Notes under the pieces: model-generated
Seen by the model: only the letters and a program-made list of their open reading frames with translations
The model's database searches: none
What the model was told of the DNA's origin: nothing
Shown: positions 1-58,813 of the stretch, piece by piece
Layout: each line of letters opens with the position of its first letter
Position numbering within the stretch: position 1 is the stretch's first letter
Source of the DNA: a virus
Lineage: Duplodnaviria; Caudoviricetes
IMG/VR virus record: IMGVR_UViG_3300028591_000076
Location: 1-64,000 of that record
DNA: 64,000 nt
Reading direction: 5' to 3' (one strand)
Made by a program: the position numbers and the translations under genes

Positions 1-79
1 AAAATAATAAATTTTATAATGGACTTTTATAAAAATAAAAAGAACTTATTTTTATTAGAAGAAAATCCCGAAGGTTATT

Positions 80-436
80 TTGATGACTAACATTGATACA
101 CGTGACGTATTTTATAACATTTATAATGATAAAATCTTTCCACATTTAACTTTTAATCCAGACGCTTATACATTAAATGTAACTCCGCTCGCTATGCAAA
201 GTTTATTTGATATAGCTTTTGCAGCCGGTATTAATTATTATAAACCCTATGAATTTTCATATGAAGCTAGAGATGTTATAGCATCAGGTTTGATTAAAAA
301 ACAATTTATAAAACAATTTGCTACAAATGCTTATTATATACAAGATATACCCGAAATTGAGCTATTTGATATTCTAGAAAAGGGCTTTATTGAAGGGCTA
401 AATACTGGTCTACAAAGTGACTATTTTAGCGACTAA
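80..436 (+). CDS. hypothetical protein (C-terminal YF-motif group)
   Basis: 118-aa ORF, TTG/ATG start after GAAGGT; ends LQSDYFSD. Confidence 0.7.
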   Translation: MMTNIDTRDVFYNIYNDKIFPHLTFNPDAYTLNVTPLAMQSLFDIAFAAGINYYKPYEFSYEARDVIASGLIKKQFIKQFATNAYYIQDIPEIELFDILEKGFIEGLNTGLQSDYFSD

Positions 437-520
437 TATAACAAAACTTATCTAAGCTGCTCTTATTCTGCTTTAAGAATTATGTAAAAATAGGCCATAG
501 TTAATATAATTATTATAGTT

Positions 521-1345
521 ATGGATAATATTAGTATTTCAACGCCAGATAATAAAGAAAATTATTATTTTACGGTATATTGCATATTTTTATCTAAAGA
601 AAGCTACGGATTTAAAAATGACCATTATTATATAGGACAGCATTATACAAATAATATAAATGATAATTATATGGGAAGTGGTGTTATATTAAGAAAATTA
701 TATAGTAAATATGGAAAAACCCACGCTAAAAAAACCATACTTAGCATATCAAAAACATTAGCAGAATGTAATGAGTCTGAAAAATATTTTATTAAAGAAT
801 ACCGCAAAAAGTACGGAAGATGTGTCTTAAATATTCAAGATGGAGGTCGAAATAATGCATCTTTTAATATTCCCGAAGGAGCTCATTTAAAAAATATTGA
901 AGGCCTAAAAGCGTATTGGTCAAATCCTGATAATAAAGATAGAATTCTTTTAAGAAATAAACGAATAGCTGAAAGTATGAAGGGAAATAAAAATGGTACG
1001 GGGACCGTACATCATCATTCAGATGAAATTCGTAAGAAAATATGGGAACATGTAAAAGCTACGAATCGGTCAAGAATACCTAAGCTCAGTGAAATTGGTA
1101 AAAAAACACTTTTTGTTTATAAAGATAATGGCCAATTGCAAGAATATAAATCCGTAAAATATTCTTGGAAATTATTGGGTTTTACTTCAGAATCTGTTTG
1201 TCAACGCTTTATTCGTTACTGTACAAAACTATTAGAAACTAATAATCTTAATACTTTTAATTTTAAGTATGGTAAATTATTTATTGCTTACCGTAAATTC
1301 GATGTTAATATAGTACAAAATATATTTAATAATACCATGTTTTAA
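521..1345 (+). CDS. GIY-YIG homing endonuclease with NUMOD3-like DNA-binding repeats
   Basis: TVY...YYIGQH, YMGSG, conserved E..FI and LNIQDGG; HHSDEIRKKI NUMOD3-like motif. Confidence 0.9.
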   Translation: MDNISISTPDNKENYYFTVYCIFLSKESYGFKNDHYYIGQHYTNNINDNYMGSGVILRKLYSKYGKTHAKKTILSISKTLAECNESEKYFIKEYRKKYGRCVLNIQDGGRNNASFNIPEGAHLKNIEGLKAYWSNPDNKDRILLRNKRIAESMKGNKNGTGTVHHHSDEIRKKIWEHVKATNRSRIPKLSEIGKKTLFVYKDNGQLQEYKSVKYSWKLLGFTSESVCQRFIRYCTKLLETNNLNTFNFKYGKLFIAYRKFDVNIVQNIFNNTMF

Positions 1346-1368
1346 TATAATATGGGAGGAGGTGCGCT

Positions 1369-2666
1369 GTGGGATGTAAGATTACACGAGACTGGAGTCT
1401 CGACCAAGGTAAAGCAGAATACTTAATGTTAACTGCCGACTTTGGTTCCTTACAATGATTCTTATGCGTTTAACTACCCAGGATACTTTTATGAACCCAT
1501 CAACTTTGGGTCACTGTGATCCTGGTTTATATGATATTTATAGGGCCGACACTGAATGTGCTGATGCCCATTCTAATACTGGCCGAATTGTCTTTGTTGA
1601 TTCTATTGGTGGCCAATTGTATGTATATACAATGGATGATGGCTCTAAGATTAAGCTATATCAAGATACTAAAATTCCTTACTTGAATAACAAGCTATCA
1701 CAAGACGTTCAGACTGGTGATATTCTGGAAGGGAAAAAAGTAGTTAGTATAGAACATCGTTCAATGACTACAAAAGAGTTTAAGTCTTTTACGAAAGATG
1801 GTTATATTGAAAAATACCAGGATAAACGTTTTGCTGGATGGCGACGTGCTTCTAAGACTGTAAACTTTGCTACACTCTTTGGCGCGACTGCGCCTACCAT
1901 GGCTAAGCAGCTTGAGAATGCTGGTTATAAAGAAGCAGAAGCGGAAGAATATATTGAGCTTACAAATAATACTGTAAGGTATAATGAGAAGCTTATTCAG
2001 ATGCGCGGTAAAATGACACCTCAGAAAGTTAAGTTTTTAGTAGCTGCAGAATTGATGCTCGAAGCTTATTATAATGGTTTCCCGGGTGTTAAAGAGAGAG
2101 CTCTGAGAGAGAAGCTTTTTGCTTGGAAAATGGGTTATTCTAGAATGTGGCATGGTCCTGTAAAGCATCTTCCAGAGCTTAAGTATATGGCAAGAAATGC
2201 TAAAGGTGAGCTAGTTGGAGCAGATAAGAAAATGTGGTCTTCAATGTTTAGTAACTTAAACAATGAAGCTGGAAATGCGCCAATTCAGTGTATGGAAGCG
2301 AATATTGCTATTAAGACTATTATAAATGTTTGTAAGTATGCTAAAGAGTGGAACTTAAAGTCTTATCTGTGGAACATGGTCCACGATTCGGAGGACTGGT
2401 GCGTTTGGAAACCAGAGCTTAATTTGGTTTGCGCATTATTAAATGCGTGTTCAACTTGGAAAAGAAACCCACATTTTGGTATTGATATGTGTATGGATTT
2501 TTCAATTTGTGATCCTTCTAAGGGATTTCAGAATAATATGTACCACGGTGGCCTAGAAAATCCATTTAAGATTGATAAAATAGAAGATGCCGTTGAAAAA
2601 TGGAATAAAGCACATGAAAATATTCCAGATTTTAAGCCTATTTCTTGGCATGGATGTGTTTGTTAG
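1369..2666 (+). CDS. polA: family A DNA polymerase, C-terminal (palm/fingers) part of a split gene; frame break at 1456-1463 in motif A
   Basis: GGAGGAGG + GTG(1369) opens 29 codons ending YLMLTADFGSLQ-TGA; ORF 1455..2666 continues MRL, DAHSNTG, motif B RRASKTVNFATLFG, NAPIQ, motif C VHDS. Confidence 0.85.
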
Positions 2667-2701
2667 TGGTTAAAATATTATAATAATTTTATTTTTATTA
2701 T

Positions 2702-2730
2702 AAAAATGCCCTTTTTAGAGGGCATTTTTT
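2702..2730. terminator. intrinsic terminator (bidirectional)
   Basis: AAAAATGCCCT..AGGGCATTTTT inverted repeat between convergent genes. Confidence 0.8.
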
Positions 2731-2795
2731 ATTATATACATCTTTTTAATAAAAATTTATAGTGAGCCATATTCCACAAAGATAATTTAAAAATT

Positions 2796-2819
2796 AAAAA
2801 GCCCCTAATTTAGGGCTTT
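2796..2819 (-). terminator. intrinsic terminator
   Basis: AAAGCCC..GGGCTTT hairpin with T tract on the minus strand, just after the LRR gene. Confidence 0.65.
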
Positions 2820-2825
2820 AATTAT

Positions 2826-3599
2826 TTATCCCACATAACTATAATTTACTACTGCTGGACAATATAAATTCCAATCGCCACCTTTAGTAATATTATTCCA
2901 TTGGCTCTCTGTTCCCCTATAATTTATACTTGATAACTTACTACAGCTAGCAAAAGCTTTATTACCAATAGTAGTAACGCTAGCTGGTATAATTATACTT
3001 ATTAAATTACTACAGCCATAGAAAGCAAAAACGCCAATAGAAGTAACTGAGTCTGGTATTTTTATACTTGTTAAATTTCTACAGCCATCGAAAGTGCCTT
3101 CTTCAATAGAAGTAACAGAGGCTGGTATATTTATACTCGTTAGTCCACTACAGTATCGGAAAGCCATCTCACCAATAGAAGTAACTGCATTTGGTATACT
3201 TATACTTGTTAAACCATTACAATACATAAAAGCGAGTCTGCCAATAAAAGTAACGGATTCTGGTATAGTTATACTTGTTAAACTCCTACATTCGTAGAAA
3301 GCTTTATCACTAATAGAAGTAACACCTTCTGGTATTTTTAGATTTTTTATTCTTTTATCCAATTTTGAACTTAAATTACCCGAATTAAGTAACTCTACTG
3401 GTATTTCATATACTAAATCAGTTATTTCTGACTTATCAGTTTTAACTACAATGTTACTAAAATTGGTACATTCGGCTGGAATAGGAATGCCACTGGATAA
3501 TGCTATATTTTTATCATAATTTTCGAAAATACCTCTATTGTCAAAGCTAACACTTATATTATCATCAGCCGTTTTTAATTTCTTAAAGGATATTTTCAT
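2826..3599 (-). CDS. BspA-type leucine-rich repeat (LRR_5) protein
   Basis: about six repeats of LTSIxIPxSVTSIGxxAFxxC. Confidence 0.95.
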   Translation of the reverse strand: MKISFKKLKTADDNISVSFDNRGIFENYDKNIALSSGIPIPAECTNFSNIVVKTDKSEITDLVYEIPVELLNSGNLSSKLDKRIKNLKIPEGVTSISDKAFYECRSLTSITIPESVTFIGRLAFMYCNGLTSISIPNAVTSIGEMAFRYCSGLTSINIPASVTSIEEGTFDGCRNLTSIKIPDSVTSIGVFAFYGCSNLISIIIPASVTTIGNKAFASCSKLSSINYRGTESQWNNITKGGDWNLYCPAVVNYSYVG

Positions 3600-14618: not shown

Positions 14619-15338
14619 TTTTTTGTCCTTTATAGCTAATCGACTCTAACTCACTAATCACTTCATCTAATTTAAGAATTTTATGAGTATAATCAAGACA
14701 TACATTATAATAATCTCTTATATCCACTTTTTTATTTGGATATGCTATTTTAGCTTCTGGTGGTTCAAGACCATTTTTTCTGTATGCTCTTGCTTCCATT
14801 GCCCAATTTTCTAGATCCTTACAATGATATAACTCATCGATACAGGTATTATGTGTATGGCCATAGATTACTTTAAAAGGCGAATTTTTTCCAATATAAA
14901 CAGGCTCATGACAAAGAATATATTTATCCTCAATAATAATTGGATGATCATAAACTTTATCAAAACCAAGCTCGGTAAAAAATTGAATAAGAGACTTATT
15001 CCTTATACCTAAAGTTTTAAGAATAGTTCTATCATGATTACCTAATACGAGATTAAGTGTTCTCTTTACTCCTTTCATTCTACTTACATATGACTTTAAG
15101 CAATTTATACCAGCATCAGCTAACATTTTTGAAAAGAATACATCACCTAAATTCCAAATTATAGTATTATTATCATCAGGCAAGTTATCAAAGAGTTTAA
15201 GAATATCTTCGTTCATTCTAAAGATTTCTTCTCTCTTTGTATAATCATATGGTCTATTACAATATTTTATGATATTTGCATGAAAAAAGTGCTTACCTAA
15301 TGTAAGTCAGAAATAATATATTCATTTCTAACCGCCAT
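14608..15338 (-). CDS. calcineurin-like metallophosphoesterase, interrupted by an 11-nt gap (15289-15299); about 239 aa if the gap is skipped
   Basis: AGGAGG-ATG(15338) MAVRNEYIISDLH-TAG, then FFHANIIKYCNRPY in the frame of ORF 14608..15216 with LGD, GNHD, CHEP, GHTH motifs. Confidence 0.9.
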
Positions 15339-15365
15339 TTTTATCCTCCTTATTTATATAAATTA

Positions 15366-24596: not shown

Positions 24597-26123
24597 TTAT
24601 TCTATAATTCGGATTTCTATACCGTTTATTGAAGTAACATTTATGTTTCCTGGCACAGTCAAAGAGCCATCTTTACCAAAAACAAACTCTTTCTTACCAT
24701 TATAGCCGCCTTGTAAATTTGTAAGAATATTTACACTTTCGTCGCCAGTTACTAGCATATTTTCACTATTTGCAGCTAGGCCATAATTATTTTTAACTTC
24801 TTTTACTGACTCACCAGATCCTATAACAACTGAGCCTTCGCCACCAATTAACATACCATGTCCATAATTGTCATTAGTATTATCTATAAAATCAATTACA
24901 GTTTTTGTATATCCAGCGCCCTGATAAGCAATTGGCTTCGTAATTGTAGTATTAGACTTCATCTCACGAATAGACGTTATAAGTTCTTGATAATTATTAT
25001 TTATAGTAGTACTTAAATTTGATAAAGTAGATTTTATTGTTGGTATTTCTCCATTCACATAATCTCTAACTTGCGCTGAAATATCTGTATCAAATTCGTC
25101 TACTCTATTAGCAATGCTTGTAATTTGGCTATTTAATGAGGCTAATTGTTCTGAGGTAATATTAGAAATATTAGAAATTTTGTCTGATATAATTTCATAG
25201 TCTATTGCTGGAACATTATCATCATAGAAGTTCTGTTTATCAGCTACAAGAGATACACTTACAGTAGGCACCATATTATCAAGATCTCTTACTATAGTTA
25301 CATTCAAATTCTCATCATGAGAAACGCTATATATACGAGTATCATTCTCTAAATATTTTTCACAAGCGGCCTGTAAATGATTATCTATTTTTTCTCTAAT
25401 TTCTTCTGGAGATGAATATATATTAGATGGTATAAAGTCATCTTCCGTTTTAGCTTTTAATTCAAATATATTTCTATCAAAACTTCTAGTTACAATGTCA
25501 TTGATACTTGATGATAAAGTTGGACCGCAAATTGTAGCTAATGTATTATTGAGCTCTTGCAACATAGCCATTACTATCTCATCTACTTGTGGCTTATATA
25601 CAGCATCATAGTAAGCATCATTTGTGCCATATGTATCTAATAATGATGGGTTATTATCAATATCCCTTCTCGCTTTATCAAAATATTCATCATATAAAGA
25701 TGTATATATTCTTTGATAAGCATCTGTTTTCTTAAAAGTTTCTAAATCAAAAGCTAAAAGAGCACTAGTGTTTTCCTGTATAAAATTATTAACATTTTCT
25801 AATGTTTCAGCTTTAGTATCAGTTAGAATACCACTTGAATAAGTAACTATATTTGGTAAATTTTTTCCTCTTTCAAAAGCATGTATGCTATTATACATAC
25901 GATTACAATCTACAGTTTCTTTTACTTTCTTAAGTAATTCTTCCTTGTCAGATTCAACTTTATAGTCTGCTACGGACCAGTTAAACTCGGGCTCTTCTAT
26001 TCGAGACCATGGAGCATTACCATCAGCCATTTCTGTTTGCTGATGTGGCCTAATGAGAATATTTGCGCCTTCTTTTTTAGCGCGCATTATATTTATTTTA
26101 TCTTCTAATGTTAAATCTGGCAT
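24597..26123 (-). CDS. putative tail fibre protein
   Basis: coiled-coil centre, C-terminal FVFGKDGSLTVPG fibre-like motif; N-terminus paralogous to next gene. Confidence 0.6.
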   Translation of the reverse strand: MPDLTLEDKINIMRAKKEGANILIRPHQQTEMADGNAPWSRIEEPEFNWSVADYKVESDKEELLKKVKETVDCNRMYNSIHAFERGKNLPNIVTYSSGILTDTKAETLENVNNFIQENTSALLAFDLETFKKTDAYQRIYTSLYDEYFDKARRDIDNNPSLLDTYGTNDAYYDAVYKPQVDEIVMAMLQELNNTLATICGPTLSSSINDIVTRSFDRNIFELKAKTEDDFIPSNIYSSPEEIREKIDNHLQAACEKYLENDTRIYSVSHDENLNVTIVRDLDNMVPTVSVSLVADKQNFYDDNVPAIDYEIISDKISNISNITSEQLASLNSQITSIANRVDEFDTDISAQVRDYVNGEIPTIKSTLSNLSTTINNNYQELITSIREMKSNTTITKPIAYQGAGYTKTVIDFIDNTNDNYGHGMLIGGEGSVVIGSGESVKEVKNNYGLAANSENMLVTGDESVNILTNLQGGYNGKKEFVFGKDGSLTVPGNINVTSINGIEIRIIE

Positions 26124-57957: not shown

Positions 57958-58778
57958 CTAGTCATCCGTAGGAATTACTTTTTCAATATATTCCTTATCT
58001 TGAGTAAAAATTGGAATTTCCTCATCGATTTCCCACCGTGAGCGATTTATTTTTTCATCAAATACATGAATTACACAAGAACCCCGTTTTTCTACAGTCT
58101 TACGGTCATTCCAGTTAATATTCTTTTCTTCATGAAGTTTATCTTGAAGCTGTGAATTATTTAAGCCCTGTATTTGCTTCTGTGAAAAATTCGCTTGAGC
58201 AAGTCCCTGAATTGAATTACGAGTTGCATCATTCTGACGCCAAATGAAATAATTAACAATTTCATTTTCTGGAATATTAAATGCTCTAGCATCAAAATAT
58301 CCACCTAATTCAGTTTTCTTTAAAAGGACATTTTTGTAAAAACGTTCATCTTCATCTTCACGAAAATTATCCTCAACTCTTTCTTTATAGAACTTCTCTA
58401 CCAAGTCTGCCCAATTCTTATTAAAGTACATTGTGGCCATTGACGCAGCGACAGAACAAATTTTCTGAACAGAATAATCAAACCATGCATCGGTCTGTAA
58501 ACTATCATAGTCAGTCAAAAGTAATGAAATTTCGTCAGACTCTACATATCCTATCTTACATCCTTGAATATGCTCACAAAGGTCCTTAGTAGTTAATTGC
58601 ATTACTTCAATAAAAAGTGGGTCATAAGGTTTTCTTAAACCCTTACAAAAACTATGAAAATGACCTAATGACACCCGTCAATACGAATAATGACGGGTGT
58701 CCTACGAGTTAAATATGTCTTAGAGCGGTTTTCGTAGAAATCCTTCATACGATCCCCGAGTGAGTCTCTTACAGCCAT
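57958..58778 (-). CDS. thg1: tRNA(His) guanylyltransferase Thg1/TLP, interrupted by an 8-nt gap (58660-58667); about 270 aa if the gap is skipped
   Basis: AGGAGG-ATG(58778) MAVRDSLGDRMKDFYE...TPVIIRIDGCH-TAG, then FHSFCKGLRKPYD, YVESDEISL, FDARAF, YFIWRQNDATRNS in another frame. Confidence 0.93.
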
Positions 58779-58813
58779 AAGAACTCTCCTCCTTATATAA
58801 TCTTATTTATAAT

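Follow-up and report, generated by a model that had tools for sequence, protein, structure and literature searches.

How can a phage make a DNA polymerase when the codons of the central catalytic motif stand in two reading frames with a stop codon between them? The question is raised by the first 64,000 nt (the window) of the virus record IMGVR_UViG_3300028591_000076 (Caudoviricetes; 239,841 bp, 30% G+C, completeness rating 76%). Near the start of this stretch lies polC, the C-terminal gene of a family A DNA polymerase (PolA), and its motif A is interrupted by eight nucleotides, TGATTCTT. Comparison with related phages indicates that these eight nucleotides are very probably a gap carried by a homing-endonuclease cassette and related to elements that ribosomes skip by translational bypass (stop-hop), and not a random lesion. 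For the copy in the window itself we favour, tentatively and at somewhat less than even chance, termination at the stop coupled to immediate restart.

The insert in motif A of a split polymerase

The window encodes polC in two pieces. A leader of 29 codons carries the motif A strand and ends GAC(1438) TTT GGT TCC TTA CAA(1453-1455) TGA(1456-1458), where GAC 1438-1440 is the codon of the catalytic Asp. The second open reading frame (ORF), 1455-2666, has 403 codons in the -1 frame relative to the leader and opens ATG ATT CTT ATG(1464) CGT TTA. The Pfam profile DNA_pol_A (PF00476) matches the 403-aa ORF only (E 4.1e-11); its motif B (RRASKTVNF; RRASKTVNFATLFG) and motif C (VHDSE) align to Bst Pol I, and the motif A Asp, which sits in the leader in the other frame, is absent from it. 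Removal of positions 1456-1463 restores DFGSLQMRLTTQDT, a letter-for-letter match to P0002, P0003, P0004, L016 and L032 (L and P numbers are handles for related sequences). Because this is the exact string of uninterrupted relatives, TGATTCTT has, on that comparison, been inserted into motif A, after the Gln29 codon and before that of Met30. The closest proteins include forms of 428-440 residues that start MGCKI... and read unbroken through ...TADFGSLQMRLTTQDT..., and the motif A Asp is contiguous with the rest of the polymerase in the same five sequences and in a fused form, P0046. In the Klenow and Taq enzymes the motif A Asp ends a strand and DYSQIELR contains the start of a helix; SLQMRL is the counterpart of that helix start.

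A sequence-only reading of the window had described motif A as cut by a TGA and an 8-nt frame-shifting gap, had noted that removal of the 8 nt gives DFGSLQ-MRL, and had placed the catalytic Asp in the 29-codon upstream frame only. The relatives bear out all of this: the uninterrupted forms read DFGSLQMRL, and the comparison with polA of related phages that it proposed brought to light eleven versions of the insert. The hairpin CGAGAC-TGGA-GTCTCG that it saw in the leader is also present (Table 1), and L008, L010 and L020 have the counterpart CGAGAG-TATA-CTCTCG.

The polymerase is split in a second way. Relatives carry an upstream N-terminal gene, polN, of 697-787 residues, which comprises a 3'-5' exonuclease and the start of DNA_pol_A up to PNLQNIP; in L016, polN abuts polC via a TAATG overlap, with no endonuclease and no insert. 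In the window's phage the N-terminal gene presumably lies off the 5' end of the record, since homologues of the ORF at 80-436 follow that gene in L003 and L029. This ORF has 66% identity to a 112-aa ORF of L003 and 64% to the N-terminal part of a 184-aa ORF of L029, each being the last small ORF after the polN gene, which lies a few kb upstream. A word-index search gave no longer fused forms; a later HMMER search of a representative library gave the distant relative P0046 (748 aa), whose single chain joins the N-terminal part to the piece with motif A (polN-polC1; ...PNLQQIP...CTADFSSLQCRL...). As P0046 has both parts in one chain, the two-gene state of the clade appears to be derived. In L021, L029 and L031, polC is cut again about 100 codons further on, into polC1 and polC2, by at least one inserted gene, so that the polymerase of these phages lies in at least three genes.

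Judged by their substitutions, the leader and body frames are both under purifying selection. With L006 and L016 as outgroups, the polC body has undergone 16 synonymous and 6 non-synonymous changes on the window lineage, and 21 and 8 on the L003 lineage. Between the leaders of the window and L003, synonymous divergence (pS) is 1.07 and non-synonymous divergence (pN) 0.21, with 63-75% nucleotide identity and the amino acids kept, and the window leader keeps every residue that is invariant among 14 leaders. A search of the 240 kb (76% of a complete genome by the record's rating) found no family B or C polymerase, no second PolA and no exonuclease domain. The view of the sequence-only reading that simple pseudogenisation is unlikely thus agrees with the substitution counts, with the conserved leader and with the result of the check that it had named, a search for another complete DNA polymerase. 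An AlphaFold2 model of P0002 from four sequences had a mean predicted local distance difference test (pLDDT) score of 47, too poor for use.

A family of inserts beside homing-endonuclease genes

Junctions were read in every relative whose DNA was obtained, and 11 versions of the insert are known at the DNA level (Table 1). Their lengths range from 4 to 12 nt and in 9 of the 11 are not a multiple of three. Since all eleven fall within five adjacent codons of polC, in the motif, the interruption is not a matter of chance. Homologous 8-nt inserts stand in the same place in L008, L010 and L033; strings of the allele series in relatives include TGAA, TGACCAA, TAGCTCAA and TAGGTGAGGACT. The gene is uninterrupted in L006/L007/L014/L022, L016, L032 and P0003, and P0004 also lacks the insert.

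Six alleles (L008, L010, L020, L011, L021, L031) have the identical codon, in phase, before and after the gap, the repeat being exactly one codon long. Ten of the 11 inserts open with a stop directly after the take-off codon, and TGA, TAG and TAA are all in use. Calculated from base composition on ten alleles (L033 not included), the six exact in-phase matches have a P of about 3e-9, or about 3e-6 once close alleles are merged; for a stop directly behind the take-off codon in 9 of the 10, P is about 8e-10. L003, L011, L009, L021 and L031 lack a start codon after the gap, but the residues that come next, TTQDTxxNPST, are kept while their codons vary synonymously; in these phages the two frames must therefore be translated into a single chain. 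In L003 (5958-5985; also in L004, L005, L013 and L023) the junction is CGT CTT TGA GCC C, and removal of 7 nt restores MRL-TTQ exactly. The 12-nt in-frame alleles of L021 (880-930) and L031 (8700-8740) place the take-off ACT atop a 6-bp hairpin with the stop in its 4-nt loop; the gap forms the 3' arm and the landing ACT comes directly after it. The two hairpins, CCTCAC-TTAG-GTGAGG in L021 and CCTTAC-TTAA-GTAAGG in L031, are distinguished by a compensatory substitution, T:A to C:G, and by their stops, TAG and TAA. As far as sequences can tell, the matched codons and stops of this family are the signature of translational bypassing between matched codons.

Such genes are split or truncated by gene callers, with starts set at MRL, at MNPST or in the wrong frame. 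A second in-frame insert, TCC TAG AGT GCT GCA, was noticed in the same gene piece of L033 (620-660) at a DAHS/ATG motif; its stop lies in the loop of the hairpin GCACT-CCTAG-AGTGC, and the collection's gene call read the TAG as Gln.

The window locus has an endonuclease gene beside the gap, a presence/absence polymorphism among relatives and a break of homology at the gap. The endonuclease ORF (521-1345) gives only a weak match to Pfam GIY-YIG. A different endonuclease (DUF7487 / PHROG 3339) occupies the position in L003, L008, L020 and L031, and that of L003 is unrelated to the one in the window. Between the window and L003, 90% nucleotide homology starts at 1473, nine bases after the insert; the endonuclease regions are unrelated, and homology resumes upstream at 92-531. 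The window leader is nearer to L008, and its body nearer to L003 and L029. L032 is an empty-site twin of L008: it lacks both endonuclease and insert, its body is 94% identical, and the four Phe-Gly-Ser-Leu codons that precede the site differ synonymously between the two. L029 carries the window's cassette minus the N-terminal (catalytic) half of the endonuclease (window 895-1350 matches at 90.6%), and its insert is only TGAA, which gives a frame relation opposite to that in the window.

The cassette would thus consist of the endonuclease gene, the recoded first 29 codons of polC and the short stop-containing insert, and would sit before the C-terminal gene of a PolA that the clade encodes as two genes. 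By analogy with T4 MobA, the most likely role of the insert is immunity: it would guard the cassette's own DNA from putative cleavage by the endonuclease, as at T4 mobA/gene 60. Six or seven DUF7487 / PHROG 3339 paralogues occur elsewhere in the genome, which is rich in free-standing endonucleases.

Two further gaps with matched codons lie in the window, both on the minus strand. The take-off codon of the gap in a Thg1-like gene stands at the end of a perfect 11-bp stem (GACACCCGTCA...TGACGGGTGTC); the leader of that gene matches positions 2-27 of the Pfam Thg1 profile and the body matches positions 27-130, so that the profile resumes where the leader leaves off. In a metallophosphoesterase gene the stop lies in the loop of the hairpin CTTAC-ATTAG-GTAAG, Pfam Metallophos matches the body, and no start codon in the body frame occurs for 83 nt after the stop. 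The string CTTACA, seen in the sequence-only reading as shared by the polymerase and phosphoesterase sites, is not kept in relatives and is probably a coincidence. A naive genome-wide scan for codon-stop-gap-codon was uninformative (388 hits, 412 expected). A stricter scan recovered the three known sites and the candidate CTT TGA C at 24661 (-), which was rejected because it belongs to another frame within the last part of a 509-aa gene; a site at 14818 sharing TCCTTACAATGA is antisense within an intact gene and was also rejected. Many small ORFs of the genome have Tyr-Phe/Tyr tails (EGYFDD, SDYFSD, DYFSD, NYYI, SYYG and others), among them those at window positions 1-90 and 80-436, and a tandem array of them lies near the other end of the record (genome 231961-234964).

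Table 1. Features of the polC locus, junction alleles of related phages and other gaps. Positions refer to the window unless another sequence is named; junctions are written take-off/gap/landing.
Feature	Position	Strand	Remarks
Small ORF, 118 aa	80..436	+	synteny marker, precedes the cassette
Free-standing homing endonuclease gene, 274 aa, GIY-YIG-like motifs	521..1345	+	PHROG 314, E 1.8e-20
Strong Shine-Dalgarno sequence GGGAGGAGGT of the leader	1354..1363	+	5 nt before GTG 1369; read from sequence
Leader, first 29 codons of polC, GTG start 1369	1369..1455	+	colinear with residues 1-29 of uninterrupted relatives
Hairpin CGAGAC-TGGA-GTCTCG	1387..1402	+	predicted fold; about 50 nt upstream of the stop
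CAA (Gln29), last sense codon of leader	1453..1455	+	take-off codon in related alleles
ATG overlapping the stop (A-TG-A)	1455..1457	+	body frame, possible restart codon; read from sequence
8-nt insert TGATTCTT	1456..1463	+	stop TGA, TT, and CTT at the relatives' landing-codon position
polC body from the conserved Met30 codon	1464..2666	+	motif A remainder (MRL), motif B, motif C, stop
Intrinsic terminator	2702..2729	+	after polC
Window allele			CAA/TGATT/CTT
L033 allele			CAA/TAGCT/CTT
L008 allele			CAA/TAGCT/CAA
L010 allele			CAA/TAACG/CAA
L020 allele			CAA/TGAC/CAA
L029/L030 allele			CAA/T/GAA (insert TGAA, 4 nt)
L011 allele			CTG/TGAC/CTG
L003/L004/L005/L013/L023 allele			CTT/TGAG/CCC; one allele across five samples
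L009 allele			CGG/CC/CGT
L021 allele			ACT/TAGGTGAGG/ACT
L031 allele			ACT/TAAGTAAGG/ACT
P0028 protein (MTLAHYNDRMRL...)			implies a twelfth allele, CAA/TGAC/CGN or AGR (inferred from protein)
Second polC cut	L029:8768-10930; L021:921-3396; L031:8600-10912		PHROG 314 endonuclease in L029; DUF7487 gene, opposite strand, in L031
Metallophosphoesterase gap	15289..15299	-	CAT/TAGGTAAG/CAC, after codon 13; region 15280-15352
Thg1-like gene gap	58660..58667	-	CAT/TAGGT/CAT, after codon 37; region 58654-58795
DUF7487 / PHROG 3339 paralogues	genome 132087-133007, 143753-144472, 171363-172469, 192793-193707, 211910-213046, 220380-221255		beyond the window

Decoding of the copy in the window

The key oddity of the window allele, already raised as a caveat in the sequence-only reading, is that no matching Gln codon stands at the landing position. 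It is CTT, against the take-off codon CAA, and tRNA-Gln pairs with CTT at one of three positions; the same landing codon is met in one distant relative, L033. In many relatives the equivalent insert appears to be built for a stop-hop, with the same codon on either side and a stop between, and the window copy would have lost the matching codon by change from CAA to CTT. Because of that loss we lean towards restart for this copy. Termination at UGA 1456 would be followed immediately by a new start, either on the AUG at 1455 that overlaps the stop or on the Met30 AUG at 1464. The products would be a free 29-residue peptide with the catalytic Asp strand and a body of 400-403 residues, and both pieces would need to assemble with the N-terminal subunit.

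Several observations are consistent with restart. The A-TG-A of the window is a standard coupling overlap with its AUG in the body frame, and the clade tolerates fragmentation, with polN and polC separate everywhere and polC1 and polC2 separate in L021, L029 and L031. All poorly matched landings (window, L033, L029 and the inferred P0028) directly precede the conserved Met30 AUG. The five alleles without a restart AUG keep pairing at three of three positions (L011, L021, L031) or two of three (L009, L003), so pairing seems to matter where restart is not available; the contrast is between 7 AUG-adjacent and 5 other alleles, few in number and partly related by descent. A complex prediction of a 30-residue leader stretch with the 403-aa body, of the kind the sequence-only reading had proposed, passed its mark with a score of 0.52 (best of three controls, 0.01) and lends slight support. 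The same mark is passed by 58 of 80 solved complexes and 2 of 110 mismatched pairs; passing scores of 0.60 or under were obtained for only 7 of the 80 and for both of those mismatches. The runs agreed in at least 84% of contacts, with a partner pLDDT of at least 57. The two chains are consecutive in a known fold, however, and the pass may only reflect likeness to solved polymerases.

Other points weigh against restart. The complex prediction fits a fused chain equally well. We know of no precedent for a free 29-residue peptide that provides the central catalytic strand of a polymerase, and the same logic would make the enzyme of L029 one of four pieces. Neither AUG 1455 nor AUG 1464 is preceded by a Shine-Dalgarno sequence. 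The Thg1-like and phosphoesterase gaps of the window have matched codons, which suggests that ribosomes of the host can hop; by hopping, they would make the polymerase as one chain. The recurrence of CTT in the distant L033 hints that CTT alleles may be functional, and the contrast between AUG-adjacent and other alleles rests on the small numbers given above.

The next reading in order of probability, which we regard as rather unlikely for this copy, is translational bypass into a single chain: while UGA occupies the A site, peptidyl-tRNA-Gln would leave CAA 1453, the ribosome would advance 8 nt and decoding would resume at AUG 1464, to give ...DFGSLQ-MRL... with no extra residue. The insert has the position and length of those in L008 and L010 (CAA...CAA), and the matched codons and stops across the family, the 12-nt alleles of L021 and L031 with their stop in a hairpin loop and compensatory change, the two matched gaps of the same window and the recurrence of CTT in L033, which hints that CTT alleles work, all argue for it. 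So does a second predicted helix of 8 bp, in which 1403-1410 pairs with 1439-1446 and which ends 6 nt before the take-off codon; in work on gene 60 a helix re-forming behind the ribosome was reportedly proposed to favour forward movement. A take-off stem-loop that includes take-off codon and stop is not predicted for the window allele. The main difficulty is the landing on CUU, where the one-in-three pairing of tRNA-Gln departs from the same-tRNA rule of the gene 60 homologues (see below) and would make the hop inefficient or dependent on a factor, and the good pairing kept by the alleles without restart suggests that pairing is important. The sole cognate Gln codon downstream in frame is CAG 1479-1481, and landing there would delete MRLTTQ; this 26-nt hop was rejected, the six skipped codons differing from L003 only synonymously. 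Nor is decoding explained by a special tRNA from within the 240 kb, where ARAGORN finds no tRNA or tmRNA gene, an unusual lack in so large a phage. A wider form of the idea, which we consider unlikely, is a programme of short-range stop-hops throughout the clade. It would serve the PolA, Thg1-like and phosphoesterase gaps (4-12 nt, in the first catalytic motif), and a phage or host factor would make landing on CUU independent of pairing and yield a single chain.

It is improbable that the allele is simply crippled, either by the cassette or by a later double change from CAA to CTT, with the polymerase poorly made or not made and the genome persisting by co-infection or sampled shortly before its loss. 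The mismatched landing codon and the presence of the allele on one contig only would fit, as would the ability of homing cassettes to spread even when costly. Leader and body, however, are intact, with all invariant residues kept and mostly synonymous changes on the window lineage; CTT occurs also in an unrelated clade, the sister allele of L029 is present in two samples and comes from a 248-kb contig, and PolB, PolC or a second PolA that might take over was not found in the 240 kb of this 76% complete record. A frameshift of -1 (or +2) before the stop, which the sequence-only reading had kept among its options, is less probable still. No stop interrupts the body frame across the insert (ATG ATT CTT), and one chain with ...SLQ-MIL-MRL... 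or ...SLQ-IL-MRL... could result, but no slippery X XXY YYZ heptamer lies between GAC 1438 and TGA 1456, and neither ACA nor AUG would allow tRNA-Gln to pair again. By the established Klenow and Taq structures, the two or three added residues would lie in the helix that comes after the motif A strand. Moreover, the 4-nt insert of L029 would need the opposite shift, and no frameshift could solve the 12-nt alleles, which are in frame with their stop.

An error of assembly or sequencing, the true genome having CAA-ATG or a matched allele, seems just as remote as the frameshift. No relatives and no second copy of the exact junction were found in IMG/VR, the allele being known from one contig, and the junction is a mosaic boundary, at which assemblers can mis-join strains; the exact 403-aa product of the window is not on record, and a 40-aa query matched one small protein only. 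Eight extra non-repetitive bases are, however, atypical of Illumina error, homologous inserts occur at the same position in other assemblies (L003/L004/L005/L013/L023 share one allele in five samples), and TGATTCTT is no simple chimera of alleles seen. What is left of the odds beyond these explanations belongs to other readings. Some candidates were rejected. An altered genetic code fails because TGA, TAG and TAA all open gaps, and TGA read as Trp would meet TAA four codons later. Splicing, another suggestion of the sequence-only reading, fails because the insert has only 8 nt and an Rfam search of 1-3000 (E up to 1) gave nothing relevant and no catalytic RNA core of a group I or II intron. 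Against protein trans-splicing by a split intein, no intein domains were found, and from residue 2 onwards the leader consists of polymerase sequence alone.

Known systems and significance

The coding gap of T4 gene 60 and its MobA homing-endonuclease element were reportedly described by Huang in 1988 and by Bonocora in 2011, and to our knowledge T4 gene 60 with its homologues is the only firm case of natural programmed bypassing outside mitochondria. The polymerase locus shares with T4 mobA/gene 60 an endonuclease gene inserted where an essential enzyme is encoded by two genes, and a downstream gene that opens with a cassette-encoded copy diverged in nucleotide sequence. A few dozen codons into that gene comes an untranslated insert with a stop, and homology breaks at or just after the landing codon. 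Many polymerase alleles have paired take-off and landing codons, and endonucleases are swapped or lost while the gap stays. The MobA element likewise consists of an endonuclease, a diverged copy of the target and a gap at the end of the element, and its endonuclease can be replaced or lost (Manning and Atkins, bioRxiv 10.1101/2022.08.31.505936). In that study (bioRxiv 10.1101/2022.08.31.505936) a single tRNA serves both the take-off and the landing codon in gene 60 and in all its homologues, and the window allele lacks the matched landing codon that every one of these homologues has. There are other differences. The enzyme here is a family A DNA polymerase and there a topoisomerase, the polymerase gaps measure 4-12 nt against about 50 nt, and they occur at any of five adjacent codons instead of one. 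Most polymerase alleles are without a take-off hairpin, and polN and polC are split also where there is no endonuclease (L016).

Synthetic stop-hops and low-level bypassing between matched codons are said to have been obtained in E. coli by Weiss in 1987 and by Gallant. The hop distances are equal to those considered here (+4 to +12), but the E. coli hops are engineered or low-level, whereas the polymerase hops would be needed for an essential enzyme. According to a 2016 review of recoding, shorter counterparts of gene 60 had long been presumed, stop-hops were only synthetic, and no natural in-frame case was known (PMC5009743). The terminase gene of Streptomyces phage phiHau3 has 10-nt inserts for which bypass was proposed, and the junction peptide was detected by mass spectrometry in E. 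coli (PMC10732093). As a natural phage gene with two inserts of 10 nt it is the closest natural short case. Its trigger is a rare UUA codon and not a stop, a regulatory role was proposed, and it has neither an endonuclease cassette nor a family of alleles at one motif. Our literature search gave no paper on short gaps in a phage polymerase.

Three further systems bear on how the pieces might be joined or expressed. Overlaps of stop and start such as AUGA and UAAUG couple termination to reinitiation in bacteria; the CA-AUG-A of the window, with AUG in the body frame, and the TAATG of polN/polC in L016 are of this type. Coupling normally concerns two complete genes, whereas here it would concern a cut catalytic motif and an active-site piece of 29 residues. 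In Aeromonas phage Aeh1, nrdA is reportedly split by mobE, and gene 43 is said to be split in T4-like phages. There too an endonuclease insertion leaves an essential enzyme as assembling polypeptides, but the pieces are large domains and no short out-of-frame gap is involved. The release factor 2 gene prfB has a programmed +1 frameshift at CUU UGA, and the allele of L003, L004, L005, L013 and L023 reads CGT CTT TGA G. The motif is absent from the window, and a +1 shift in L003 would place two extra residues, Glu-Pro, within the motif A helix.

In summary, about a dozen natural alleles of a single motif, with inserts of 4-12 nt, offer a ready-made mutational series for the requirements of ribosome hopping, which spans matched codons, a stop-in-loop hairpin with a compensatory change and, in the window, an unmatched landing. 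They would extend the cassette of endonuclease and immunity gap from a topoisomerase to a replicative polymerase. A practical consequence is that gene callers split or truncate genes with such gaps. If restart is the true mode of expression in the window's phage, its polymerase would receive the catalytic Asp strand as a free peptide of 29 residues, which would be remarkable in itself.

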